A DNA stretch of 35,042 nucleotides from an uncultured Nitrososphaerota archaeon (GTDB lineage Archaea > Thermoproteota > EX4484-205 > JAAOZO01). Shown here piece by piece: positions 1,236-32,264 of this stretch. Location: positions 1 to 35,042 of the forward strand of contig CAZXBW010000002.1 in assembly GCA_964639105.1 (NCBI GenBank), written 5' to 3'. The position numbers and the translations under genes are program-made. Under the pieces are notes generated by a model. It was not told the DNA's origin. It did no database searches and saw only the letters and a program-made list of their open reading frames with translations. The stretch's first letter is position 1, and each line of letters opens with the position of its first letter.

Positions 1236-2294
1236 CTAGGTCATGACATCGTGGCCTGTTCCCGTGACCAAGATTGTGTTCTCCCATCTCGCTCCGGTTA
1301 CTCCTCTTATGTATAGGCCTGGTTCAACGGTAATGACATTACCTGAGACCAACTTCTCCGGATTCTTGCTCGAGACGGAAGGCTCTTCATGTATGTCAAG
1401 GCCCACGCCGTGGCCCAGCCCGTGCAAGATGCCTTCAGAGAATCCCGCCGATGAGAGCATGCGATCAGCCTTCTGCCCCAATTCGTCTATCTTGATTCCA
1501 GGTGCCACAGCTTCCGCGCAGGCATCGTAGGCGCTCTTCACGGAATCAAACACCTTTCGGTTTTGGCCATCTGAAGACCCCACCAGCGCAGTCCTCGTTG
1601 TGTCGGACTTGTAGTGCTCCACGTCAGCACCGAGGTCTATGACGACTAGTTCCCCGTCCACAACTTTCTTCCCTGTCGGCAGAGCATGCGGCAGTGAAGC
1701 CCTCCAACCGGAGCCAATCGATGTTCTGAATGCAAACTCATCCGCCCCTTTCTCCAACATTGCGCACTCGGCTGACATGGCGATGTCCTTCTCCGATACG
1801 CCAGCTTTTGTCCGCTCCAGCGCCGCCCGCATTCCCTCCCTAGCCAGTTCACCGCTCCTTCTCATAAGGCGGATCTCCTCCTCATCCTTGATTGCTCTGA
1901 TCCTTTGGACCATGTTATTTCCTGACTTCACCAAGGCAGGGCACCCCACTCCGGATCTGCCCTCCAGAGGCAAGACATCATCGGCCTCCACGTACGCGTC
2001 TCGGGCCGTCGTGATCCTCCTTTTCAGTTCTTCGAAGATCTCCGCTTCGCTTCGTCCGGTGAACACTTCAACCTCGTCAGATTCCGCGAGGAAGAAGTCC
2101 AACTTGGATCCGAAGACGGACAGATCACCAGACCTGGAGACAGAGAGGACGGTTCGACCCATCGGCCAGACGCCGATGAGATAGAATACGTTGGAGGTCT
2201 CAGATAGCAGGAGTCTGTCAACCGAGGTCTGCTGTAGCAGGTGTGTGAGCTTTCCCAACCTTTCCTTGTTCGGTTGAACTCGAACCAGTTGCAT
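1236..2294 (-). CDS. Xaa-Pro aminopeptidase/dipeptidase, M24 family
   Basis: The M24 pita-bread metal-ligand region is present (VVIDLGADVEHYKSDTTRT, HGLGHGVGLDIHEEP, NVITVEPGLY). The N-terminal creatinase-like region reads DRLLLSETSNVFYLIG. Confidence 0.85.
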   Translation of the reverse strand: MQLVRVQPNKERLGKLTHLLQQTSVDRLLLSETSNVFYLIGVWPMGRTVLSVSRSGDLSVFGSKLDFFLAESDEVEVFTGRSEAEIFEELKRRITTARDAYVEADDVLPLEGRSGVGCPALVKSGNNMVQRIRAIKDEEEIRLMRRSGELAREGMRAALERTKAGVSEKDIAMSAECAMLEKGADEFAFRTSIGSGWRASLPHALPTGKKVVDGELVVIDLGADVEHYKSDTTRTALVGSSDGQNRKVFDSVKSAYDACAEAVAPGIKIDELGQKADRMLSSAGFSEGILHGLGHGVGLDIHEEPSVSSKNPEKLVSGNVITVEPGLYIRGVTGARWENTILVTGTGHDVMT

Positions 2295-2790
2295 CTTCTC
2301 TTCGCTTCAGCAGCTCTTCCATCTCCCTTTTAACTGATTTGGTGTCGCGGCACCCCAGAAGCTTGTTGAATCTGTCCGTCGTCGTCAGCATCGAAGTCCT
2401 GCCGACCTTGGCGGCTTCGACATAGCCTGCCCTCACAAGCTCTTTCACGTGCCCATACGAGTGTCTGCCCCTGATTTGGACCACCATTGACTGCACAATT
2501 GGTTGTTCTACCGCTATGACGGAGAGCGTCTTGGAGGCTCCCTTTGATATCGGGAGGCCAGCGGAGACTTTCTTAGCATGCTCAAAGTACTTGGGCCTCA
2601 CCTGCATGATGTATCGCTCAGCACCGAGTTGCACTATCTCGACTCCCCCCTTCCTGTGCGCATACTCCCCGACAAGGCTCTGAACGCAGGCATCAACGAT
2701 TTCTCCCTTGGATCTCAGAGCCTTCGCCATTTCTTCGGTTGATAGCGGTCTCCCTGCCGCAAACAGCAGAGCCTCGACCGATGCCTTCAT
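2218..2790 (-). CDS. scpB: Segregation and condensation protein B (kite subunit of SMC-ScpAB)
   Basis: The N-terminus VEALLFAAGRPLSTEEMAKAL is typical of ScpB. A second winged helix reads ASKTLSVIAVEQPIVQSMVVQIRG. The gene lies directly downstream of scpA. I prefer ATG 2790, which forms an ATGA overlap with the scpA stop. The ORF also extends to a TTG at 2823. Confidence 0.8.
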   Translation of the reverse strand: MKASVEALLFAAGRPLSTEEMAKALRSKGEIVDACVQSLVGEYAHRKGGVEIVQLGAERYIMQVRPKYFEHAKKVSAGLPISKGASKTLSVIAVEQPIVQSMVVQIRGRHSYGHVKELVRAGYVEAAKVGRTSMLTTTDRFNKLLGCRDTKSVKREMEELLKRREDATGSSSTEQGKVGKAHTPATADLG

Positions 2791-3443
2791 GCCCTCGCTG
2801 GCTGGTTTGTGCTCACTATCCAAAACTGTTCCCCCTTCTTCTCTATTTCGTAGTCCATTGAGCTGAGCACGAACAAGAGTATGATGAATGTCCTAACCAT
2901 CTCGATGTAATCTAGGCCTTCAAACAGTTCCAGTACATCGATCCTCCCGGTGCTCCTCGTAGCGGAGGCAATTCTGTCTCCTAGGGCTTTCACCCTGTTC
3001 TCAACATCCTCCAGAAACAGGTCAGGAACGATCAGGTCCTCCGCGACCTCGGTGCTGCCCACGAACAGTTTCCTTTCCCTCAACGCCCTAGTCAGCAGCT
3101 CCACGAGATCCGAGAACAGTTCAGTCGAGTCGACCACCGGATGTGCTGTCCTCACGGGCAGGTCGATGGGCAGAACAAGTCGATCGTACACTACGGGCTC
3201 CCCTTTGTCCTCGGGTGATCTGGGTGGTTCTTCGAGCTTCAGCAATTCCTCAGTCTTCCTCCTGAATATTATCGCCGATGACAAGAGAGCTACGCCCGAT
3301 CGCTCGAAATCGACATAGCCTCCGGTCCTTATCTGGCTCAGCAGACCCCTTATCGCGGCTGCTATGTCCAGATCCCATACCCTGGCCTTGTAGACGCTGA
3401 GAATGTCGAAAAGCACGTTGAAAGCGGTGGTGACAGAACTCAC
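2787..3443 (-). CDS. scpA: Segregation and condensation protein A (kleisin of SMC-ScpAB)
   Basis: The 218-aa ORF sits between smc and scpB. Its N-terminus is kleisin-like (AFNVLFDILSVYKARVWDLDIAAAI) and its C-terminal winged-helix region reads MVRTFIILLFVLSSMDYEIEKKGEQFWIV. The GTG start forms a GTGA overlap with the smc stop. Confidence 0.75.
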   Translation of the reverse strand: MSSVTTAFNVLFDILSVYKARVWDLDIAAAIRGLLSQIRTGGYVDFERSGVALLSSAIIFRRKTEELLKLEEPPRSPEDKGEPVVYDRLVLPIDLPVRTAHPVVDSTELFSDLVELLTRALRERKLFVGSTEVAEDLIVPDLFLEDVENRVKALGDRIASATRSTGRIDVLELFEGLDYIEMVRTFIILLFVLSSMDYEIEKKGEQFWIVSTNQPARA

Positions 3444-6400
3444 TTTCTCACCCTCTGGCTCGCGACGATCGGCATCTCCATGGCCTTTGATCTACCACCC
3501 TTGATGTAGGTACCTATCAACTTGTCAGCCCCGATGGCCACAACGTCCTTTAGGGAGATGACGAGCAGTTGAGATCCCGATGCACGCATAGAGACCAGCT
3601 TCAGGTAGTTCTGTACATTCCTGGCATCGAGGTGTGCGTCTATTTCGTCGAAGAAGTAGAACGGAGCCGGTCTCAACTGTTGGAGGGCGAATATGAGGCA
3701 GAGGGCAGTCACGGACTTCTCTCCGCCGCTCGACCCGTATACCAACCTCGTCTCCTTTCCCGGGAACTGAACCATGATGCTCAATCCACCTTGGAATGGG
3801 TCTTCGGGCCTTTCGCACTCCAATCTGGCAGATCCGCTGGTGACTTCGTTGAAGTACTCACCAAAACCCTTGTTGACGGTCTGCAATGCCTGAAGGAACG
3901 CCTCTCTCTTGTTACGCTCTATCTCGGCAATCAGATCCAAGATGGCCTTCTTCTCCTCTTCGAGAGTGTTCAGCCTCTGAGAGATCAAGATGTAGTTCTG
4001 AGCCTGTTGGTCGTACTGCTCTCGCGCCAGCTGATTGACCAAGCCCATGCCAACCAGGTCGGACTCCAACTCCTTCACCAGAGTGTCGCAATGCTCTGAG
4101 TCTAGGCTTTCTAGGCTCAACAGCTTTGGCTCCCCTAGAGAGCTGAGTTTCTCCTTGATAGAAGCCATCTCGGTCTCAATCTCGTATTTTCTTCGTTGAG
4201 AGTCGCCTGACTTCGATTGAAGTTCTCTGAACTTCGCGTCGATTTCTTCCATCTGATCCTCAGCTTTCCTGAGCTCACCTGCCAAACGATCTCTGCGTTC
4301 GTCTGCCGATGGTGCGGCTTCTGTCGATTCCTTGAGCTTGTTCTGCAGCTGGGATATTTCTCTGTCGAGATTGCTTCTTGCGTCGGAAAGTTGCCTGATC
4401 TTGACATCTGCCTCTCTCAGAAGATCTGCAGTGCCCGAAATCCTGTCGGTGATCCTCTTTCTATTCTGGATGAGCTCATTCTTCTCCTTCTCCGTCTCGA
4501 TGATCCTCTTCTTCATGTCTCCGAGCTCAGCTTCAATGGCCCGTATCTCCGCATCGAGCTTGGAGGCCCTCCTCTCCGATGAGTTCGTCAGGTTAGTCAT
4601 CTGGGACCTTCTTAACGAGAGATCCTTCCTGACCGCGAGAGTGTCTGTGAGCTTCTTGTTGAGGCTCTTGACCCTCAGATCGATGTCTCTTCGGTTCTTC
4701 CTGAGGGAAAGAATCCGCGCCCTCAGTCCATTGAGCCTCTTCTCTTCTGTCAGCATCTGACCTTCCTCAGCCTTCATTTTGTCCGTGATCTCGTTCAGCA
4801 CCCTGGATGCCGCATTTCTGACCTCCATCACCCTCTCAAGCCAAGAGCTGGCCTCTGTGATGCCCTGTTTCAAGTCGACAATGTTCTTCGAGAGTATCTC
4901 TTCTCTCAGTCTTCTTGCTTCGTAGAGGTCTGCCTCGAGATTTCGGAGTGTCTCAAGGAGTGACGATGGTTTCGCGGCACGTGTTGCTCGCAATCTGGCA
5001 GAGTTCCTCCCGCCAAGGACGAGGCCATCCTTCGTGACTACGCTGAATCCCTTTCCCGAAGCCAGGGCGGCGTCGGTCGAGTCGGACGCCAGTATGAAAT
5101 CTCCTATCCTCGAGTCCAAGAATTCCCCCAGCTCCGGAGGGAATTCCACCATGTCTATCAGCCGGTTATCTCCCTCTTTGTGTATCTCCTTGGGCTCACC
5201 CTCTTTCACCAGCCAAGCCGAGGAGACGCCCACATTTAGAAGCGATATCGAAATAGATGAGGGATCCTCATCCTTTCCGATGACTATCGCATCAGACCAT
5301 TCTCCCAGAGCAGCTGCCAGTGCGGGCTCAACGTCGGGCCTGCATCGCACGAGGTTTTTCAGCAGACCCACGACTGGGATTCCTGCTTCTCTGAGGACAA
5401 GCTCGACCACGTGCGGATCTGATGTTCCGAGTTCAAATGATTCGTCAAGTCTGCCTCTGACCCTCTCCGCTGCGACCTCTAGTTTGGCCATGAGATCCCT
5501 GATCATAATCTCTCCTCTTTCGAGCTTCTCGGCCTTCGCCAAGCTGTTCGCCAGATCTGATCCGAAAGTCTGAGCTTCGCTCGCTATCATCTTCAATCTG
5601 GAAGTCAGCCTGTCCGCTCTTGCCTTCCACCTAAGATACCTCCTCGCATGCAACCTTCTGGCCCCCGATGCCGATCGCTCTTCGCGTTCGAGTTCGCCTA
5701 TTTGTTCGCTGGTTTTCTGCATCTCGAAATCCGCTTGCGATGATTCAGACTGCAGATGAGGGAGCACGCTTTCCACGTCCGCCAGCCTCCTCTGGAGAGA
5801 GTCGGCCTCCCTTCTTCTCGACTCGATGGTCCGCCTGAGTCTATCTCTCTGAGGCAACAGCCTCAGTTGTCTGTTATCCAAGATCCTCGCGCGGGCTTTG
5901 GTGATCTCAGTCCTTCTGCGGAGGCTTCTTATCGTGAGTGATGCCTTTTTCCTATGCATTCTGTCCTCTGCTATCTTGGCTGCCAGATCCTTCTTGTTGC
6001 CTTTGGCCTGCTGAAGAGTCCATTCAGATCGCCCGAGCTCTCCCATCTTGTTCGTTAGCATTCCGGTGAGTTCTGCCGACGTGATCTCAGATGGAGCCTG
6101 TCTGGTCTTATCGATTTCAAGAATGCCATCAAGCAAGATCTTGCGTTGTTCCGTCACTCTCTTCCTTTCTTCGGCTATTCTTTCAAGATCTGACGATAAC
6201 ACATCTGTCTCGGCTGTTATTTCCCCGAATCTCGACTCTCTGCGTCTGAGGTTCTCTAGAAGTATGTGTCTCTTCAATTCATCCGCGACCTCCCTCAAGG
6301 TGTTGAACGCAGTGGCTCGGTTGAACTCGTGCTCGAGTTGCTCGATCCTATTCCTGACTTCGTCGAGCCTGCTCATGGCAACCTTGAGATTCACGTCAGC

Positions 6401-6943
6401 TTCCTTCAGCTCTTCCTCCGCTTGCTTCCTTCTTTCGTCGAAGCTCGAGATGCCCACGGCCTCCTCTATCATTGCTCTGACCTCCTCTGGGCTCTTCTCG
6501 GATATCCGCGAGATCTCTCCTTGGACGACGATGTTGTAGCCTCGCGAACTCAGACCAGCCATGCTCAGCGTGTTCATCACGATTCCTCTCTGCGCTCTCC
6601 TTCTATTCAGGAAGTACTTGCTCTCACCCTTGTCGTCTATGTATCTGGTTATGACTATCTCGTCCTCCTGTGCGGGGATCCTTCTGTCGTGATTGTCTAT
6701 CACCATTCTGACATAATACTTCTGTCCCTTCCCCCTTGCGTTGTCCGATATCAGGCTGGCCAACTTGTCCGCTCTAAGGGCTCTCGTGGAGTTCTCGCCC
6801 ATCACGAACCTGACCGCATCTATCAGGTTGCTTTTCCCAGATCCGTTGGGCCCAGTGATCACACTCAGGCCAGGTGAGAGTCGGATGACAGTCTTGTCCG
6901 AGAATGATTTGAAGCCCTTCAGTTCCAGCCTTGATATGTACAT
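3440..6943 (-). CDS. smc: Chromosome segregation protein SMC (canonical, with hinge)
   Basis: The protein is 1167 aa with Walker A GPNGSGKSN and long coiled-coil arms. A central hinge-like globular region lies around GIPVVGLLKNLVRCRPDVEPALAAALGEW. The signature is SSGGEKSVTAL and Walker B is FYFFDEIDAHLD. Confidence 0.95.
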   Translation of the reverse strand: MYISRLELKGFKSFSDKTVIRLSPGLSVITGPNGSGKSNLIDAVRFVMGENSTRALRADKLASLISDNARGKGQKYYVRMVIDNHDRRIPAQEDEIVITRYIDDKGESKYFLNRRRAQRGIVMNTLSMAGLSSRGYNIVVQGEISRISEKSPEEVRAMIEEAVGISSFDERRKQAEEELKEADVNLKVAMSRLDEVRNRIEQLEHEFNRATAFNTLREVADELKRHILLENLRRRESRFGEITAETDVLSSDLERIAEERKRVTEQRKILLDGILEIDKTRQAPSEITSAELTGMLTNKMGELGRSEWTLQQAKGNKKDLAAKIAEDRMHRKKASLTIRSLRRRTEITKARARILDNRQLRLLPQRDRLRRTIESRRREADSLQRRLADVESVLPHLQSESSQADFEMQKTSEQIGELEREERSASGARRLHARRYLRWKARADRLTSRLKMIASEAQTFGSDLANSLAKAEKLERGEIMIRDLMAKLEVAAERVRGRLDESFELGTSDPHVVELVLREAGIPVVGLLKNLVRCRPDVEPALAAALGEWSDAIVIGKDEDPSSISISLLNVGVSSAWLVKEGEPKEIHKEGDNRLIDMVEFPPELGEFLDSRIGDFILASDSTDAALASGKGFSVVTKDGLVLGGRNSARLRATRAAKPSSLLETLRNLEADLYEARRLREEILSKNIVDLKQGITEASSWLERVMEVRNAASRVLNEITDKMKAEEGQMLTEEKRLNGLRARILSLRKNRRDIDLRVKSLNKKLTDTLAVRKDLSLRRSQMTNLTNSSERRASKLDAEIRAIEAELGDMKKRIIETEKEKNELIQNRKRITDRISGTADLLREADVKIRQLSDARSNLDREISQLQNKLKESTEAAPSADERRDRLAGELRKAEDQMEEIDAKFRELQSKSGDSQRRKYEIETEMASIKEKLSSLGEPKLLSLESLDSEHCDTLVKELESDLVGMGLVNQLAREQYDQQAQNYILISQRLNTLEEEKKAILDLIAEIERNKREAFLQALQTVNKGFGEYFNEVTSGSARLECERPEDPFQGGLSIMVQFPGKETRLVYGSSGGEKSVTALCLIFALQQLRPAPFYFFDEIDAHLDARNVQNYLKLVSMRASGSQLLVISLKDVVAIGADKLIGTYIKGGRSKAMEMPIVASQRVRK

Positions 6944-23272: not shown

Positions 23273-24124
23273 ATGTCCGAAGGATCTCCCTTGAATCCTG
23301 ACAAACTGGGTCAACTCCTCTTCGCCTGGAAGCAAGATCCCGCCGCGATGAACATTGCAGAAAAGGTACTGCAGCTCGGCGAGAGGTCTGGACCAAACAG
23401 GGCGGTTTCAGGGCTGGAGGCAATCCCGTTGAGGTGGAACGAAAGCGAGTTCATGCTCGTGTACCTAGAGGAGAGCCCTCTCTATGCTCAGAGACAGCTG
23501 ACCACCATGAGACCCAGTTCCGCTACGTTCTTGTCAACGCACAAGAGCGAGACCGGGATCCCTTGTCTCACCGTCCATTGCACTGGCAATATCGGCGAAG
23601 CCAAGTACGGAGGTGATCCCCATGAAGTGTCCATAGCGCCAGCAGCGATGATGCGAGAGGCACTTATGGAACTGAAACGTCAAGTTGATTCCTTGGGCAT
23701 CGCATACCCCGTTTCATATGAGGTGACGCACCATGGGCCTACAGTTGACTTTCCTGTCATGTTCATTGAGATCGGGAGTTCGGAGGTTCACTGGAAGGAT
23801 CAATCCGCAGGCATGGCCGTAGCCAAGGCAGCGTTGTCATCTCTGAAGTATAATGACCCTAGCGCAGGCGTTCACATAGGCCTTGGAGGTCCGCATTATG
23901 CACCTCTTTTCACCGCGCGGGCGTTGGAAAAGGGCACCTGCTTCGGCCACATGGTCTCGTGGCACAACCTTCCGAACTTGGACCGGGAGATGCTTGCCGC
24001 GATGGCCAGAAGGAACGTCGGAGTCTCGGAAGGAGCAATCCTCGATTGGAAGGGTCTGAAGGAGGAAAAGAAGAGGGTGACAGCGTTGCTGGATCAGATG
24101 AACATTCGGTACGTGAGAGCCTAA
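23273..24124 (+). CDS. dtdA: D-aminoacyl-tRNA deacylase, archaeal type (DTD2/DtdA)
   Basis: The motifs LTVHCTGN, EVTHHGP and GLGGPHYAP and the length of about 280 aa are characteristic of the archaeal tRNA_deacylase family. Confidence 0.8.
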   Translation: MSEGSPLNPDKLGQLLFAWKQDPAAMNIAEKVLQLGERSGPNRAVSGLEAIPLRWNESEFMLVYLEESPLYAQRQLTTMRPSSATFLSTHKSETGIPCLTVHCTGNIGEAKYGGDPHEVSIAPAAMMREALMELKRQVDSLGIAYPVSYEVTHHGPTVDFPVMFIEIGSSEVHWKDQSAGMAVAKAALSSLKYNDPSAGVHIGLGGPHYAPLFTARALEKGTCFGHMVSWHNLPNLDREMLAAMARRNVGVSEGAILDWKGLKEEKKRVTALLDQMNIRYVRA

Positions 24125-27077: not shown

Positions 27078-27626
27078 CTAGGCTCCAAAGACGTACCTCA
27101 GGAGAGATCGGGTGTCTACCTCAACCTTCGCCCTCCAGCCCAGAATGAGCGAATCTCCCTCCTCTTCCAGGTATCCCCACTTGATGTACTTCGATAGAAA
27201 GTTGCGCACTTTCCACTTCGGGAATTTCTGTCTTAGAGTTTCCTCGACTTCTGACCTAGCTGCCTTGTCACCCCTTGAACCTATCGTGGCGAGGCATATC
27301 GTCAGACCTGCCAGCTCGTCCACACTCCATCCTGATGTCTTCGCATCTGATACTTTCAGTGGATCGGTCAACACTAGGACGAATCTGGCTGTGCTGAGAG
27401 TATCCTCTGGGCTGTCCAAGGATAGTTCAGTCCCGTCGTCTCCAACCGCCTTGATGGTGATACCAAGGGGCTCGATTTGAGACCTGAGCACCTTTATCAC
27501 CCTTGAGTAGCCTGAGCCGAGGGAGCGCTTCAGCTCCCACCCCTTGACTCCGGGTATTCTGTGCGACTTGAAGAATAATAGTTGTGCCGCCCGTCGAATC
27601 TTGGCAGGGAAACCGGAGGACTCCAT
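27078..27626 (-). CDS. Tandem winged-helix kite-like protein (ScpB/MukE/Nse3-MAGE class), third gene of the mini-SMC operon
   Basis: The 182-aa protein splits into two halves. The first half reads AAQLLFFKSHRIPGVKGWELKRSLGSGYSRVIKVLRSQIEPLGITIKAV...ARFVLVLT. The second half reads AGLTICLATIGSRGDKAARSEVEETLRQ...KYIKWGYLEEEGDSLILGWRAKVEVDTRSLLRYVFG. These parallel the WH-A and WH-B patterns of the MAGE homology domain (..FLLxKxxxKxPIxxxxxLxxV..xY.. and ..YLEY....YEFxWGPRAxxETSKxKVLxFV). Confidence 0.55.
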   Translation of the reverse strand: MESSGFPAKIRRAAQLLFFKSHRIPGVKGWELKRSLGSGYSRVIKVLRSQIEPLGITIKAVGDDGTELSLDSPEDTLSTARFVLVLTDPLKVSDAKTSGWSVDELAGLTICLATIGSRGDKAARSEVEETLRQKFPKWKVRNFLSKYIKWGYLEEEGDSLILGWRAKVEVDTRSLLRYVFGA

Positions 27627-27627
27627 A

Positions 27628-28368
27628 TCAACTCACTATCGTTACGATACTCTCTGCTTCCGTCGGTCTCTCCTTCGTAGCCCCTTCCTTCGCCACGATC
27701 CAGAACCTCCTCTTGAGGGGTTCCTTCTCGACCACAGCATATCCATACGATAGCATGAAGCTGATGAGCACAGCACGTCGAAGCCTTTCGTTCAGACTGC
27801 CCTCGCCCAACAGTTCCTCATACAGCAACCTTCCACCTCTATTCTGAAGCTCTTCATGCAAACCCAGCATTTCGTCCGAGATGAGTTCATCGTAGGTGAC
27901 CCCAAGGGATTCCAAGCTCTCGCCCAACAGGGGTTCCATCTTCTCGGCACCGATGGTGTAGTCCTTTAGGTTGCTCCAGTATTCGTAGGATCTTCTCATC
28001 ATCTCAAGACTCAACACGTCTCGTCCTGTGCTCGGTCTCCAAGATTGCAGGAAGGCCTCGGCTAGTCTGTCTGTTGAGGATCCCATGACCGCCAGCCTGA
28101 TCAAGAACGGATCGACATAGAGCACCGACGACTTGTCCCTTAGGAATTTGCTCTGGCTGTACACCAGTATCGCAAAGTCGTACAGGGCTTCCATGTCCAG
28201 TTCTATGTGCTTGAACTGCAGGCTTTTCTTGATGAGTTGTCTGAGCCTGGACAAGCGTGGCTCTAGCTGGACCGCGAGCGGATCCGACCCGCTCCTCATG
28301 GCCGAGGACAACTCTACTATGAGGTCCTTGAGTTCCTTCTCAACTTGTCTTTCAGACGTTCTCGACAA
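27628..28368 (-). CDS. Kleisin-like protein (ScpA/Nse4 class), second gene of the mini-SMC operon
   Basis: The 246-aa protein has the C-terminal segment LLYEELLGEGSLNERLRRAVLISFMLSYGYAVVEKEPLKRRFWIV. This aligns by eye with the ScpA C-terminal winged helix encoded in this same window (VLELFEGLDYIEMVRTFIILLFVLSSMDYEIEKKGEQFWIV). The TTG start overlaps the SMC-like gene by 17 nt. The stop lies 1 nt from the kite ATG. Confidence 0.55.
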   Translation of the reverse strand: MSRTSERQVEKELKDLIVELSSAMRSGSDPLAVQLEPRLSRLRQLIKKSLQFKHIELDMEALYDFAILVYSQSKFLRDKSSVLYVDPFLIRLAVMGSSTDRLAEAFLQSWRPSTGRDVLSLEMMRRSYEYWSNLKDYTIGAEKMEPLLGESLESLGVTYDELISDEMLGLHEELQNRGGRLLYEELLGEGSLNERLRRAVLISFMLSYGYAVVEKEPLKRRFWIVAKEGATKERPTEAESIVTIVS

Positions 28369-30139
28369 TGTTGATCACCGAAGTTCCACTCACCTTCTGC
28401 ACAACTATGCCTACTGCTCTGGTGATTGACTTGGGCACTTGGCCAGGAGTCACCACCAAGTATGATGCTTCGGGGTTGTTGTTCGCTTCTTGTTCGACGA
28501 GCTTGAAGAACGTCTCCCTGTTCCGCGGATCCATGTGTATGTCGAATTCATCCAGCGCCCTCAGAGGGGACTGTATGAGTGACTGAAGAGAAAGCATGAA
28601 TGCTATTATGGAGGAACTCCTCTCACCGCCGCTCTGTGTGAAAGAGTTGAGTTCAACGAGTCTGCTTCCACCAAAGCTGACGAGGATCTGGACACCTGCT
28701 TGGTCCATGTCCTCCTGACCGGTAAAGCGGATTTCTCCATCCGCCCCGATGTTTCTCATCTTTTCCTTAAAGGAATCGCTGAGTTGGTCCACGAGCTTGG
28801 CAACCTCTCTTCTCCAAAGCGTCAGAGTCTCGTCAATCTCGCTGAGCACAGACTCCTTGTTCTTCTTGACGGCCAAGGACTTCTGCTCTATGTCGTCGTA
28901 TGTCTTCCTGTAACTCTCATAGATTTGTTCTGCGTTCTCAACAACTGAACCGAGTGTGGCTAGACCAATCTGCGCATCCTCGAGTTCCTTGGTGATCTCC
29001 TCGCGGTTCCTCGTTCGGCTCGGCTTGGGACCCAACTCAGACGCTTTCTTGAGAGCATCCTCTGATGCGTTCTGCGCCGACTTCATGCTTGCCTCCACTT
29101 TGCTCTTGAGTCTTGTCAACAAGGAGAGGTTTCTCTTCAAAATGGCCTCCCTGACTCTTGCTTCCGCATAGCTCTCAACAGTGCGAGTCAGCTCCTGCTT
29201 CGAACGAGACTCCTCGTTTTCTCCAGCATGCCTCGCGGAAGTGGTCAGCTCTTCGACCTCGTTCTGGAACTGCGTCAGCAACCCTGACACGCGCCTTGAC
29301 GCATCTTCGATCCTTGAGCCATACTTGGCCAGCCTTTCACTGATCTGGACGTTCTTCTCGGCCAGCCGATCAACTTCCTGGGACAAACTTGCGTGTTCAG
29401 ACCAAGCTTGCTCGATTTGCAGCTCAGTCATCCTGAGTTTCAGCGAATCCCTCTTCTTGAGCTTCTCAACCTCTCCGTGCCAAGTGTCAAGAGTAGCCTG
29501 TGCTTCAGACAGAAGCGAGGAGAGCTGCTTCTCCTCACTGGCAACCTCTGCTAGCCTGTCTCTCGCCTCTCTTATTCTGTCCCTGAAGTGAGTGAGGCCG
29601 ACGGCTTTCTCTATGGTCTGCAACATGGTCTGAGCAGTCAGAGCCGCTATTTCTTCGACCATGTACTGATGCATTATAATGAACATGTTGTCTGGATCTA
29701 TGCCGAATCTGTTCAGTACATCGTAGATCTCCAACTTCGTGGCTTGTCTAAAGTTCATCTGATGCCAGTATTCGCCGTCTTCCCTGAGATAGCGGGTGAT
29801 GACAAGTTCATCGGTTCTGACCTCAGGTATCGGCCTGGATCCGTTCTGGGCCTTATTGTCGAACACCAGCGTTATCCTCGCGATGTCTTCTCCCCACCTT
29901 ATGAGGTCACTCAGCTTCCTACCTCGCTCCGTGTGAGCTTGGCCCAGCCCAACCGAGAGGCCTAGAAGTATGGAGGACTTTCCAGCTCCGTTCGGGCCCA
30001 AAACGAGATTGAGGCCAGCTGAGATGGGAATTCTAGCATACTTGTATGTCATCAGATTCTCAAGTATGAGTTCCCTTAGCAGTAGTTTGCTCTGCCGTGT
30101 CTGCCCAACTGGCCTCTCGGCTATCACAGTCGGTCTCAA
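28352..30139 (-). CDS. Hinge-less short SMC-like ABC ATPase with Smc5/Smc6-like head motifs
   Basis: The N-terminal head reads LILENLMTYKYARIPISAGLNLVLGPNGAGKSSILLGLSVGLGQAHTERGRKLSDLIRWGEDIARITLVF. About 300 aa of coiled coil follow, with no globular hinge and no cysteine anywhere in the protein. The C-terminal head reads QSGGERSSSIIAFMLSLQSLIQSPLRALDEFDIHMDPRNRETFFKLV...SYLVVTPGQVP. The start is TTG 30139 or, given the TATA position, GTG 30127. Confidence 0.7.
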   Translation of the reverse strand: MRPTVIAERPVGQTRQSKLLLRELILENLMTYKYARIPISAGLNLVLGPNGAGKSSILLGLSVGLGQAHTERGRKLSDLIRWGEDIARITLVFDNKAQNGSRPIPEVRTDELVITRYLREDGEYWHQMNFRQATKLEIYDVLNRFGIDPDNMFIIMHQYMVEEIAALTAQTMLQTIEKAVGLTHFRDRIREARDRLAEVASEEKQLSSLLSEAQATLDTWHGEVEKLKKRDSLKLRMTELQIEQAWSEHASLSQEVDRLAEKNVQISERLAKYGSRIEDASRRVSGLLTQFQNEVEELTTSARHAGENEESRSKQELTRTVESYAEARVREAILKRNLSLLTRLKSKVEASMKSAQNASEDALKKASELGPKPSRTRNREEITKELEDAQIGLATLGSVVENAEQIYESYRKTYDDIEQKSLAVKKNKESVLSEIDETLTLWRREVAKLVDQLSDSFKEKMRNIGADGEIRFTGQEDMDQAGVQILVSFGGSRLVELNSFTQSGGERSSSIIAFMLSLQSLIQSPLRALDEFDIHMDPRNRETFFKLVEQEANNNPEASYLVVTPGQVPKSITRAVGIVVQKVSGTSVINIVENV

Positions 30140-30152
30140 GTTTTGAACTTCG

Positions 30153-30159
30153 TTAAAAA
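30153..30159 (-). promoter_or_regulatory. TATA-like box (TTTTTAA on the minus strand) upstream of the SMC-like gene
   Basis: The box is centred about 29 nt upstream of GTG 30127, which favours that start and a leaderless transcript. Confidence 0.3.
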
Positions 30160-30187
30160 CCTATCTCGACCGTTGTCAGCATTACGG

Positions 30188-30195
30188 TTAATATA
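30188..30195 (+). promoter_or_regulatory. TATA-like box (TTAATATA) about 30 nt upstream of the ATG of the 233-aa gene
   Basis: The box lies in the 82-nt divergent spacer shared with the SMC-like operon. Confidence 0.35.
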
Positions 30196-30221
30196 ACTGG
30201 CTGTCCGAAGATGAGGTACCG

Positions 30222-30923
30222 ATGGTATTAGCTGGCAAGATCTTCAGAGTCGTCGAACAAGTCTCGATAGAGACTATTGCAGAGAAACTGAATGGCTACA
30301 GGAACGAACAGACCATTGAGGGGTCCGACCTGTCCCTGCTGACCGAAATAAAGGACCTGAACTCCACCAAGGATGAACTGTCTGGGATCATATCGAGAGA
30401 TGTCCCCGTAAGGCTGCGTCAGAGGGAGGAACTGGAGGTCACCTTCAGGACAGTCGATACGCCCTTTCTGTTCAGACAGAGAAAACCGGACATGCTGCTG
30501 TTGGTGGCAGAGAGGAAACCTGTCGCAAACGCGATCGCGAACCTGTTCTCGTCTACACTTTTCCTCTCCTTGGGAGGAGTTCTGAACGCCGAGATCACAC
30601 CGAAGACACTGGAATCGTATCACAGAAGGAATCCTGAGGGGACGAAAGTGATGTTCTTCGACGGGCTTGAGATCCCCAACTTGGACAAGATATCACTATA
30701 TGGCCCTTCGATATCAGACACGTCGTTGTATCCGACCTATGTGTCGCAGGGAAGCATTTGGTATGTCGTCGTGACCTCAAGGAAGTACGGCTATGTGGTA
30801 GGAGTGACGAGGGACGCAGTGGTAACCATTTTCAACAGAATGAGCATCGAAGACTTCGTCAGCTTCGTGAAAGACGAGATATTCGAACTGATCGGGACAA
30901 CGAAAGGGCAACCAAGCCACTAG
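30222..30923 (+). CDS. Hypothetical protein (233 aa), divergent from the mini-SMC operon
   Basis: This is a clean ATG ORF with a TATA-like box upstream. I recognise no family or motif. Confidence 0.5.
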   Translation: MVLAGKIFRVVEQVSIETIAEKLNGYRNEQTIEGSDLSLLTEIKDLNSTKDELSGIISRDVPVRLRQREELEVTFRTVDTPFLFRQRKPDMLLLVAERKPVANAIANLFSSTLFLSLGGVLNAEITPKTLESYHRRNPEGTKVMFFDGLEIPNLDKISLYGPSISDTSLYPTYVSQGSIWYVVVTSRKYGYVVGVTRDAVVTIFNRMSIEDFVSFVKDEIFELIGTTKGQPSH

Positions 30924-31528
30924 CGATCGTGCGACTCGACGTAGTCTGAGATTGAACTGAAAGTGCTATCTTCTATCCAACCGAATCTGTGAAGCTCATC
31001 GGCGACTTCCATGAGAGTCGCAACACAGGCGAAATGGATGTTCCTCTCTTTCAGGAGTGTGGAACCCCCCTCTTGCTTGTCCAGAAACACGCAATACCCG
31101 TGTAGTACACCTCCTTCATTCTTGATCACCTTAGCCATTTCAAGTGCTTTCTTTCCGGTAGCGATGACATCATCGATCACGAGTATTCTGTCTCCCGGAA
31201 ACATGGTGCCGAGAACTGGCCCGTACTTATCCTCCGCGGGTGTCTTGCGCAGTACGACCAGAGGCTTGTTCAGGAACTGGGAGGCAAGCGTAGCGATAGG
31301 CAGACCGCTGTGATCTGAGCCACCGATTCTGTTGTAGCCCTCTCCGAACTCCTGTTTGATGATTGTGCAGAGTTCCTTGGTGGTAGCAGCAAGCATCGTG
31401 GGATCTTGCCAGAGTCTGTTCAGGTCGAAGTTGAGCGGGGCCGGCTCCCCCATATCATTGGTGAAGTAGCCCAATTGTAGCGCTTCTGTCTGAGCGATTG
31501 CCTTGGCGAGCACTTTCGCTCTATCCAT
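30920..31528 (-). CDS. pyrE: Orotate phosphoribosyltransferase-like type I PRTase
   Basis: The PRPP-binding loop is RILVIDDVIATGKKALE. The upstream pattern ALQLGYFTNDMGEPAPLNFDLNRL...IGGSDHSGLPIA...LRK resembles OPRT. The gene symbol is tentative. Confidence 0.6.
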   Translation of the reverse strand: MDRAKVLAKAIAQTEALQLGYFTNDMGEPAPLNFDLNRLWQDPTMLAATTKELCTIIKQEFGEGYNRIGGSDHSGLPIATLASQFLNKPLVVLRKTPAEDKYGPVLGTMFPGDRILVIDDVIATGKKALEMAKVIKNEGGVLHGYCVFLDKQEGGSTLLKERNIHFACVATLMEVADELHRFGWIEDSTFSSISDYVESHDR

Positions 31529-32264
31529 ATATTTGCATCTCCCCTGGATGGATCATCTTCACCTGCGTTTTGTCGCAGACCTTCCTTACACTCGCCTTGA
31601 ACTTCTGAACGTCAGTGCCGTGAAATGGAACTACGATTTTTGATCGAACCAACTCAGCAACCTGTGCGCCGCTCATCGGTGACACTCCGGGATCCAAACC
31701 TATGGGGACGAACGTGATGTCAGGTTCCTGCTCTGACACGACTTTCATGTCTTCGTTCGGCAAACTGTCGCTAGCGTGGTATATCCTCAGTCCATTGTCC
31801 AAGACTATCATGTAGGTCAGCGGGGTCTTGGCAGTTGGATGGTTGCTCCTGAAAGCCGATATCGTCATCATGTCCATTGACAGTTCGTCACCTGGATTCA
31901 TCACCCTGATCGTGTCCTTGTTGATGAGCCTTCTGAGAAGGACGGCGGAGGTTTGATCCGCGATGACGGGAGGGAGGTCTTCAGGAGGTGCCACGCCGTA
32001 TGGTTTTTGCTGAACAGTCCCTGCAAGGCCGTTGCTCACTGCTTTGTGCAGAGAGAAGATGAAGTTCTCGTCGAGATGATGCGAATGCTCGTGGGTCACG
32101 AGTATGACGTCGGGCCTGAAATTATCTGGAAGAGTGTAACGGGTCGTGTCAACGAGTACGTTGTACATAGGAGATCTTATGATGAGGCCAGAGCGATCAT
32201 TGGTTCTCATGACTGCTGTCTGTGACTTGCCCAGACCGATTTCGGCCATGTCAGAAACATTCAA
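31521..32264 (-). CDS. MBL-fold metallo-hydrolase
   Basis: The beta-lactamase-fold metal motif ILVTHEHSHHLD (HxHxHH variant of HxHxDH) is present, with later His/Asp residues (YHASDS, VPFHG). Confidence 0.65.
   Translation of the reverse strand: MNVSDMAEIGLGKSQTAVMRTNDRSGLIIRSPMYNVLVDTTRYTLPDNFRPDVILVTHEHSHHLDENFIFSLHKAVSNGLAGTVQQKPYGVAPPEDLPPVIADQTSAVLLRRLINKDTIRVMNPGDELSMDMMTISAFRSNHPTAKTPLTYMIVLDNGLRIYHASDSLPNEDMKVVSEQEPDITFVPIGLDPGVSPMSGAQVAELVRSKIVVPFHGTDVQKFKASVRKVCDKTQVKMIHPGEMQIYG

Follow-up and report, generated by a model that had tools for sequence, protein, structure and literature searches.

A probable Nse1/3-like kite protein and its partner genes in a compact SMC5/6-related operon of an uncultured Nitrososphaerota archaeon

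The window considered here is a stretch of 35,042 nucleotides (nt) from an uncultured Nitrososphaerota archaeon (contig CAZXBW010000002.1 of GenBank assembly GCA_964639105.1, positions 1 to 35,042 of the forward strand), and the gene under study encodes a protein of 182 amino acids (aa). With a probability of about 85%, we consider this protein to be the kite subunit of an archaeal SMC5/6-related complex, encoded by a tightly packed minus-strand operon that comprises the genes for a short SMC, an Nse4-like kleisin and the kite (Table 1). The evidence from the kite, from the kleisin and from the ATPase leads in each case, and independently, to Smc5/6-Nse4-Nse1/3. The association of the three proteins is known here from the adjacency of their genes: the stop codon of the kleisin gene lies 1 nt before the start codon of the kite gene, the ATPase open reading frame (ORF) overlaps the start of the kleisin gene by 17 nt, and a kleisin gene is found directly upstream of the kite gene in 80 of 85 loci. 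The resemblance of the kite is real and specific to the kites of Smc5/6, and it appears to be divided about equally between Nse1 and Nse3.

Fold and relationships of the kite protein

The kite ORF starts with an ATG at position 27626 and reads down to 27078, being the last gene of the operon. An earlier note, made from the DNA letters without database searches, had described its product as two winged-helix-like halves that resemble the MAGE/Nse3 homology domain; the ORF exists, and the peptide strings quoted in that note are all present in its translation. A word-indexed search rendered 39 homologues, which were archaeal wherever they were named (Bathyarchaeota, Thermoproteota, Thaumarchaeota and Thermofilaceae). 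An exhaustive HMMER search with the kite profile against 1.84 billion protein representatives rendered 142 cluster representatives, all of which apparently belong, whole or as fragments, to this archaeal family, and among which no long eukaryotic protein and no bridge to MAGE was seen. Conservation in the family peaks at a 'PGVKGWEL' turn in the first half and at the motifs 'GYL' and 'GWR' in the second.

The two halves are borne out by a confident AlphaFold2 model built from an alignment of 33 homologues (mean predicted local distance difference test score, pLDDT, of 86.6; predicted template modelling score, pTM, of 0.66), in which the succession helix-helix-helix-strand-strand occurs twice. 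In the first winged helix (WH-A) the helices span residues 5-19, 29-36 and 40-54, and the strands residues 56-61 and 81-86. In the second (WH-B), which carries the invariant residues L108, K134, G151, Y152, G163, R165 and E169, the helices span residues 102-117, 124-132 and 137-149, and the strands residues 153-156 and 159-162. The model of the 182 residues ends with two short helices located after WH-B, and it includes no RING domain.

A comparison of this model with the PDB, carried out by means of Foldseek, rendered Xenopus Nse3 as the best match (7dg2_C, E 4.4e-6, template modelling (TM) score 0.70), followed by human NSE1 (5hvq_C, E 1e-5, TM 0.67), human MAGE-G1 (5hvq_D, E 4.4e-5, TM 0.39) and Xenopus Nse1 (7dg2_A, E 7.3e-5, TM 0.66), and then by MAGE-A4, yeast Nse3 chains, MAGE-A3 and MAGE-A11, with E-values between 1e-3 and 2.4e-3. 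ScpB (3w6j, E 3.8e-3, TM 0.36) and MukE (E about 9e-3) were found behind them. Kites or MAGE domains account for all five matches with E <= 0.001 and for nine of the top ten.

When the profile of the 33 sequences was compared with the sequences of the PDB, the top match was also Nse3, with an E-value of only 0.2. An alignment of 50 sequences, in which that set was widened with divergent representatives from the exhaustive search (profile A2), matched Nse3 (7dg2_C) at 3.9e-5, MAGE-G1 (5hvq_D) at 3.6e-4, human NSMCE3 (9lwi_E) at 8e-4, and human NSE1 at 1.7e-3 and 2.2e-3 (two chains). A designed repeat protein (7udk) that scored better was discarded as an artefact, consisting of four weak repeated matches summed over a short low-complexity stretch. 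HMMER pairs the family segment 'KxRRAAQLLLFKSHRxPGVKGWEL' with the WH-A segments of Xenopus Nse3 and human MAGE-G1, and also 'LAxLTxxLxxIxSRGGKAxRxE' with an NSMCE3-type segment that corresponds to the first helix of WH-B. The residue pairings with NSMCE3 that had previously been made by eye are reproduced in these alignments, and the NSMCE3-type human sequence given in that note is nearly identical to chain 5hvq_D.

Nse3 is slightly ahead of Nse1 both by profile (3.9e-5 versus 1.7e-3) and by Foldseek (4.4e-6 versus 1e-5), whereas the opposite order is obtained when the family members are compared one by one with Pfam: SMC_Nse1 (PF07574) is matched by eight of the 50 (best E 4.7e-6), and MAGE, weakly, by two of the 50 and by four of the 33 (best E 6e-4). 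Of the specific assignment to MAGE/Nse3 put forward in the earlier note, the likeness to an Smc5/6 kite holds, but a closer relation to Nse3/MAGE than to Nse1 is not apparent. Since neither of the two is clearly favoured, the protein is best named Nse1/3-like, and best regarded as a form not yet split into the two eukaryotic versions.

With Nse3/NSMCE3 (7dg2_C, 5hvq_D, 9lwi_E) the archaeal kite shares the tandem WH-A/WH-B fold, an alignment at the level of profile hidden Markov models over WH-A and the first helix of WH-B, and, as known here from the genes, an Nse4-type kleisin and an Smc5/6-type ATPase as partners, but its identity to them is only 18-20%, and Nse3 proteins exceed it in length by about 25-120 residues. 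With Nse1 (5hvq_C, 7dg2_A) it has in common the tandem winged-helix core, SMC_Nse1 being the Pfam family that most members match, but it lacks the C-terminal RING domain. Whereas eukaryotic Nse1 and Nse3 form a heterodimer, the archaeal kite is the product of a single gene and is presumably a homodimer. In this last respect it probably resembles ScpB (PF04079), with which it also shares the superfamily fold and, presumably, the role of a kleisin-bound kite; it differs from ScpB in that there is no relation between their sequence profiles, the structural match is much weaker, and ScpB is encoded in a separate operon of the same window.

The kleisin and the short ATPase

The 246-aa product of the gene upstream of the kite gene had, when taken alone, no match in Pfam, NCBIfam or PDB sequences. 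A profile made of 18 members from related loci matched, over the C-terminal winged helix, human EID3 (an NSE4 paralogue; 5.5e-4) and yeast Nse4 (1.7e-3) in the PDB, as compared to only 0.24 for the C-terminal domains of ScpA. Moreover, Pfam Nse4_C was matched by 12 of the 18 members, with a best value of 3.4e-5. The top match of this profile, the designed repeat protein 6een, was rejected as an artefact, its score being likewise the sum of numerous weak repeat matches in a short region of low complexity.

The 595-aa ATPase matched Pfam SMC_N at 1.9e-26 and carries a Walker A motif (GPNGAGKS), a signature motif (SGGE) and a Walker B motif (ALDE). Among PDB sequences, and in a ranking of best hits, which is not a phylogeny, the full-length protein was closest to Smc5 (1.1e-28, 103 bits), followed by prokaryotic Smc (7.8e-24) and Smc6 (1.3e-20), and the C-terminal head alone to Smc5 (2e-15), then Smc6 (3e-11) and then Smc (2e-7). 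The segment 'YLVVTPG' was aligned to 'YFFITPK' of Smc5, with a common 'TP' motif located at what we take to be the position where canonical SMCs carry the H-loop histidine. Both partners that had been proposed for the kite from the letters of the DNA are consistent with these results: the kleisin is Nse4-like by family profile and by Pfam Nse4_C, and the best solved relatives of the ATPase are Smc5 and then, by the C-terminal head, Smc6. The listed start of the ATPase ORF is a TTG, and translation may in fact begin as many as about 20 codons further downstream, because conservation among the homologues begins near residue 20.

In length, the ATPase is about half the usual SMC, and its family ranges from 573 to 684 aa in 68 loci. 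The canonical SMC encoded in the same window has about 570 residues in its centre that find no counterpart in the ATPase, and SMC_hinge, which is matched by that canonical SMC, gave no match in the 595-aa protein up to E 10. The ATPase has no cysteine, and no CxxC motif was found anywhere in the family; it therefore has no zinc hook of the Rad50/ClsN type. The family alignment shows conserved heads, a conserved head-proximal coil and little conservation in the middle, and the variation in length is found almost entirely at one insertion point near residue 305, where the tip of a hairpin would be expected. These features of the sequence suggest that each arm has about 130 residues and that a hinge is lacking.

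Rad50/ClsN and Lamassu LmuB likewise have a size of about 550-680 aa and a hairpin coiled coil that lacks the canonical SMC hinge, and RecN has a similar overall size and a hinge-less hairpin coiled coil. The ATPase is unlike RecN, Rad50 and ASRP in its head sequence, which is closest to Smc5/6. Membership of ASRP/ClsN or Rad50 was considered and rejected, since the score reached 41 bits where the cut-off is 300 and a zinc hook is missing; the score against SMC_prok_A was 183 bits. To our knowledge, none of the RecN, Rad50/ClsN or LmuB systems combines a kleisin with a kite.

Distribution, gene neighbourhood and previous work

When one genome was scanned for each GTDB species, a relative of the kite was found to be encoded in 392 species genomes. 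The best 80 of these 392 belong to Bathyarchaeia, Nitrososphaerota, Brockarchaeota, Methanomethylicia, Thermofilaceae and unclassified Thermoproteota, and the closest relative (93% identity) is encoded in a metagenome-assembled genome of an uncultured member of the Thermoproteota. An SMC homologue was found in 76 of the 85 loci, usually directly upstream. The gene order SMC, kleisin, kite recurs across the Thermoproteota. In a subgroup of Brockarchaeota and Nitrososphaerota (loci L009, L011, L016, L017 and L018) the short SMC gene stands apart, 1.5-4 kb upstream and on the opposite strand, and the genes of the kleisin, the kite and an Lhr-type helicase remain together.

The window includes also a second, canonical SMC operon. 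It encodes an SMC of 1167 aa with a match to Pfam SMC_hinge, a 218-aa protein and a ScpB of 201 aa (PF04079, 4.5e-33). The 218-aa protein, which had no Pfam match and whose C-terminus was weakly aligned to the kleisin profile (hhalign E 1.5e-3, probability 17%), is probably ScpA. The organism has in consequence two distinct and apparently complete SMC systems, with both operons located within 35 kb.

Table 1. Features of the window that are discussed in the text
Feature	Position	Strand	Basis
Second, canonical SMC operon	2218-6943	minus	Pfam
D-aminoacyl-tRNA deacylase	23273-24124	plus	
Lhr-type DNA helicase, 959 aa	24192..27071	plus	Pfam DEAD, Helicase_C, WH_Lhr, DEAD_assoc
Probable kite subunit, 182 aa, Nse1/Nse3(MAGE)-like tandem winged-helix	27078..27626	minus	ORF, homologues, AlphaFold2, Foldseek, family profile
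Nse4-like kleisin, 246 aa	27628..28368	minus	18-member profile, Pfam Nse4_C in members, synteny
Short SMC5/6-related ATPase, 595-aa ORF	28352..30139	minus	Pfam SMC_N, PDB sequence matches, motifs
Candidate accessory protein, 233 aa, RdgC-like fold	30222..30923	plus	AlphaFold2 and Foldseek, synteny
Phosphoribosyltransferase-like protein	30920-31528	minus	
Metallo-beta-lactamase-fold protein	31521-32264	minus	

Divergently from the SMC gene, and separated from it by a spacer of 82 bp, lies a gene for a protein of 233 aa that had no match in Pfam, NCBIfam, PADLOC, PHROGs or PDB sequences. Its AlphaFold2 model (pLDDT 89.9, pTM 0.87) matched in Foldseek the RdgC protein of Escherichia coli (2owl_A, E 7.5e-7, TM 0.59-0.62) and a further RdgC structure (2owy, E 1.4e-4), and nothing else below E 0.001. 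By sequence, no match to the RdgC family was found in Pfam up to E 1, nor any match of a profile to the PDB. The gene is present in 28 of the 35 loci with enough upstream DNA, and in 18 of them it is divergent and within 78-310 bp of the SMC start. In two contigs without an adjacent kleisin or kite gene (L086 and L088) it stays paired with the short SMC gene. Previous work mentions RdgC-like proteins in the histone operons of halobacteria (PMC11390915), and our literature search found no report linking an RdgC-like protein to an archaeal SMC system. The spacer (30140-30221) contains an AT-rich 'TTAATATAA' about 25 nt upstream of the ATG of the 233-aa protein and a 'TTAAAAA' near the SMC side, both of which may be candidate archaeal TATA boxes.

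On the other side of the operon, the Lhr gene is convergent with it, the stops of the Lhr and kite genes being 6 nt apart. Lhr is found downstream of the kite in 25 of the 65 loci with enough DNA and can be considered a recurrent neighbour, and possibly a functional partner. In Thermofilaceae (locus L001) a gene for a FEN1/XPG-type nuclease lies just upstream of the SMC gene. The remaining flanks are of a housekeeping type (Table 1), which fits a core-genome setting rather than a mobile island.

The archaeal operon family and its evolutionary meaning are already known. Yoshinaga and Inagaki (2021; PMC8665677) described 'SMC5/6-related' archaeal SMCs, mainly in TACK lineages, and were unable to link Nse1, Nse3 and ScpB from their sequences. 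Van Hooff, Raas, Tromer and Eme (bioRxiv 10.1101/2024.01.07.573240, latest version May 2025) described archaeal 'Nse1/3-like' kites, Nse4-related kleisins and SMC5/6-related SMCs, in operons that are distinct from the condensin/cohesin-related operon and are found mainly in TACK and Asgard archaea. In the same work the RING domain is absent from archaeal kites, the TACK kites are generic Nse1/3-related, and a ScpB-like kite and a second SMC operon are reported to be present alongside; its Supplementary Table 3 includes neighbouring Nse4- and Nse1_Nse3-related genes in Bathyarchaeia and in Thermofilales B69-G16 (GCA_003649235.1). The window contains the same protein family, gene arrangement and second SMC operon. 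One of our loci (L040), the kite of which is 46% identical to that of the window, appears to come from that Thermofilales genome, as matched by the isolate name (B69_G16) alone. The view expressed in the earlier note that proteins of the MAGE type are regarded as eukaryotic is outdated in the light of that preprint, and the bearing which it attributed to the locus on the origin of the Smc5/6-Nse1/3/4 module is supported as an interpretation but is not news. The main text and the searched supplements of the preprint make no mention of hinge loss, SMC length, RdgC or Lhr, and our literature searches found no description of a short or hinge-less archaeal SMC5/6.

Alternative explanations and proposed function

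Several observations weigh against the assignment of these genes to an SMC5/6-related complex. The kite of the window alone had no match in Pfam, NCBIfam or PDB sequences, so that its relationship could be tested only by means of the family profile or the structure, and PF01454 (MAGE) in particular gave no match to it up to E 10. All the Pfam matches of its family (MAGE, SMC_Nse1 and ScpB) are under the gathering scores, and its identity to Nse3 and Nse1 in the Foldseek alignments is only 16-20%. The lack of a hinge in the ATPase is argued from its length, the missing Pfam hinge match, the lack of cysteines and the pattern of conservation. Finally, eukaryotic Smc5/6 consists of an SMC heterodimer with a hinge, two kites (one of them with a RING domain), the SUMO ligase Nse2, and Nse5/6, whereas the operon described here encodes one SMC and one kite. 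The ORFs that were scanned, those near the operon and near the canonical SMC locus, included no recognisable Nse2-like or Nse5/6-like gene, and the absence from the locus of a heterodimeric SMC, the Nse1 RING, Nse2 and Nse5/6 means that the mechanistic analogy may be incomplete.

It could be the case that the protein is a generic kite of the ScpB, MukE or JetB type, with a likeness to MAGE/Nse3 that reflects a shared fold and no specific evolutionary signal. The tandem winged-helix fold is indeed common to all kites, ScpB and MukE are included in the Foldseek list, and Pfam ScpB gave weak matches in two of the 50 family members (best 1.4e-3). However, Nse3 and Nse1 are about 1000 times better than ScpB and MukE by structure, with TM scores of 0.66-0.70 versus 0.31-0.36, and profile A2 finds the five Nse3/NSE1 chains and neither ScpB nor MukE among PDB sequences up to E 10. 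PF04079 gave no match to the kite of the window, the real ScpB of the genome is unrelated to the kite family profile (hhalign probability 0.6%), and the partner kleisin and the partner SMC lead independently to Nse4 and to Smc5/6. We regard this explanation as very improbable and largely refuted. An even smaller chance is given to a free-standing transcription regulator of the MarR/ArsR type that merely happens to be encoded beside SMC genes, as might be thought from one truncated homologue labelled 'ArsR family regulator' by the Joint Genome Institute and from weak matches to MarR_2 and HTH_27 in a few members (E 0.004-0.09). The protein has two tandem winged-helix domains and not one, no MarR-family structure was found among the significant Foldseek matches, and its gene is separated by 1 nt from a kleisin gene that adjoins it in nearly all the loci. 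Foldseek and profile thus favour Nse3, MAGE and Nse1 over ScpB, MukE and MarR-like proteins, and the resemblance to MAGE/Nse3 noticed previously goes beyond a generic one.

The three genes could also serve, instead of chromosome maintenance, for an SMC-based defence against plasmids or phages such as Wadjet/MksBEF or Lamassu. Lamassu typically has a short SMC-like ATPase, the ATPase of the operon matched mad3 (2.4e-21) and LmuB (1.7e-11) in PADLOC, helicases of the Lhr family occur in BREX (BrxHI, 5.7e-89 here), and eukaryotic Smc5/6 restricts extrachromosomal DNA, as described in PMC10586767. But the kite, the kleisin and the 233-aa protein had no match in PADLOC or PHROGs, the operon includes no nuclease effector (JetD, LmuA), and the ATPase scores higher with Smc5 and with SMC_prok_A than with the defence models, its PADLOC matches (LmuB as above, JetC 4.4e-7) being only at the level of a generic ABC ATPase and below the SMC matches. 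Moreover, the locus is kept with housekeeping neighbours across the 392 species genomes instead of being scattered in variable islands. A defence function is therefore held to be unlikely, although somewhat less so than the two explanations discussed above.

If these genes encode an SMC5/6-related complex, some features of its function can be proposed by analogy with the solved Smc5/6 and Smc-ScpAB complexes. Two copies of the single SMC would form an ATP-dependent dimer of heads, and the kleisin would link one head, at its neck, to the other, at its cap; the part of the kleisin that matches Nse4_C is its C-terminal winged helix. Two kites would bind to the middle of the kleisin as a homodimer, in the place of the Nse1-Nse3 heterodimer, and upon ATP engagement the kites and the heads would clamp double-stranded DNA. 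Given the apparently short arms and the lack of any detectable hinge or zinc hook, the complex more likely acts as a compact local clamp or sensor on DNA than in long-range loop extrusion.

From gene context only, we put forward the hypothesis that the complex acts where DNA is damaged or recombining, as eukaryotic Smc5/6 does, because the RdgC-fold protein, Lhr and, in Thermofilaceae, FEN1 are recurrent neighbours. A place as a genuine fourth subunit, or as a loader, is conceivable for the RdgC-like protein, since the short SMC gene and the RdgC-fold gene are paired also where those of the kleisin and the kite are elsewhere. It might be speculated, with considerable doubt, that the SMC5/6-related complex of the Thermoproteota is a miniature hinge-less machine that forms one DNA-repair module together with a putative, hitherto unrecognised archaeal DNA-ring protein of the RdgC fold and, in many lineages, Lhr.

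Eukaryotic Smc5/6 is the least understood of the SMC complexes, and the MAGE proteins, a large family in humans that is linked to cancer and neurodevelopment, derive from Nse3. An archaeal complex with one undifferentiated kite shows the module as it was before the eukaryotic duplications and additions (RING, Nse2, Nse5/6), and is small enough for biochemistry and structure work. The locus described here confirms what had been published on this point, and adds to it a compact example with two operons within 35 kb, as well as evidence of short arms without a hinge. The RdgC-fold protein and Lhr, as recurrent neighbours, provide a testable lead towards DNA repair. If the module is as tentatively outlined above, the ancestral job of the Smc5/6 lineage would have been to clamp or sense DNA locally where it is damaged or recombining, and not to extrude loops.

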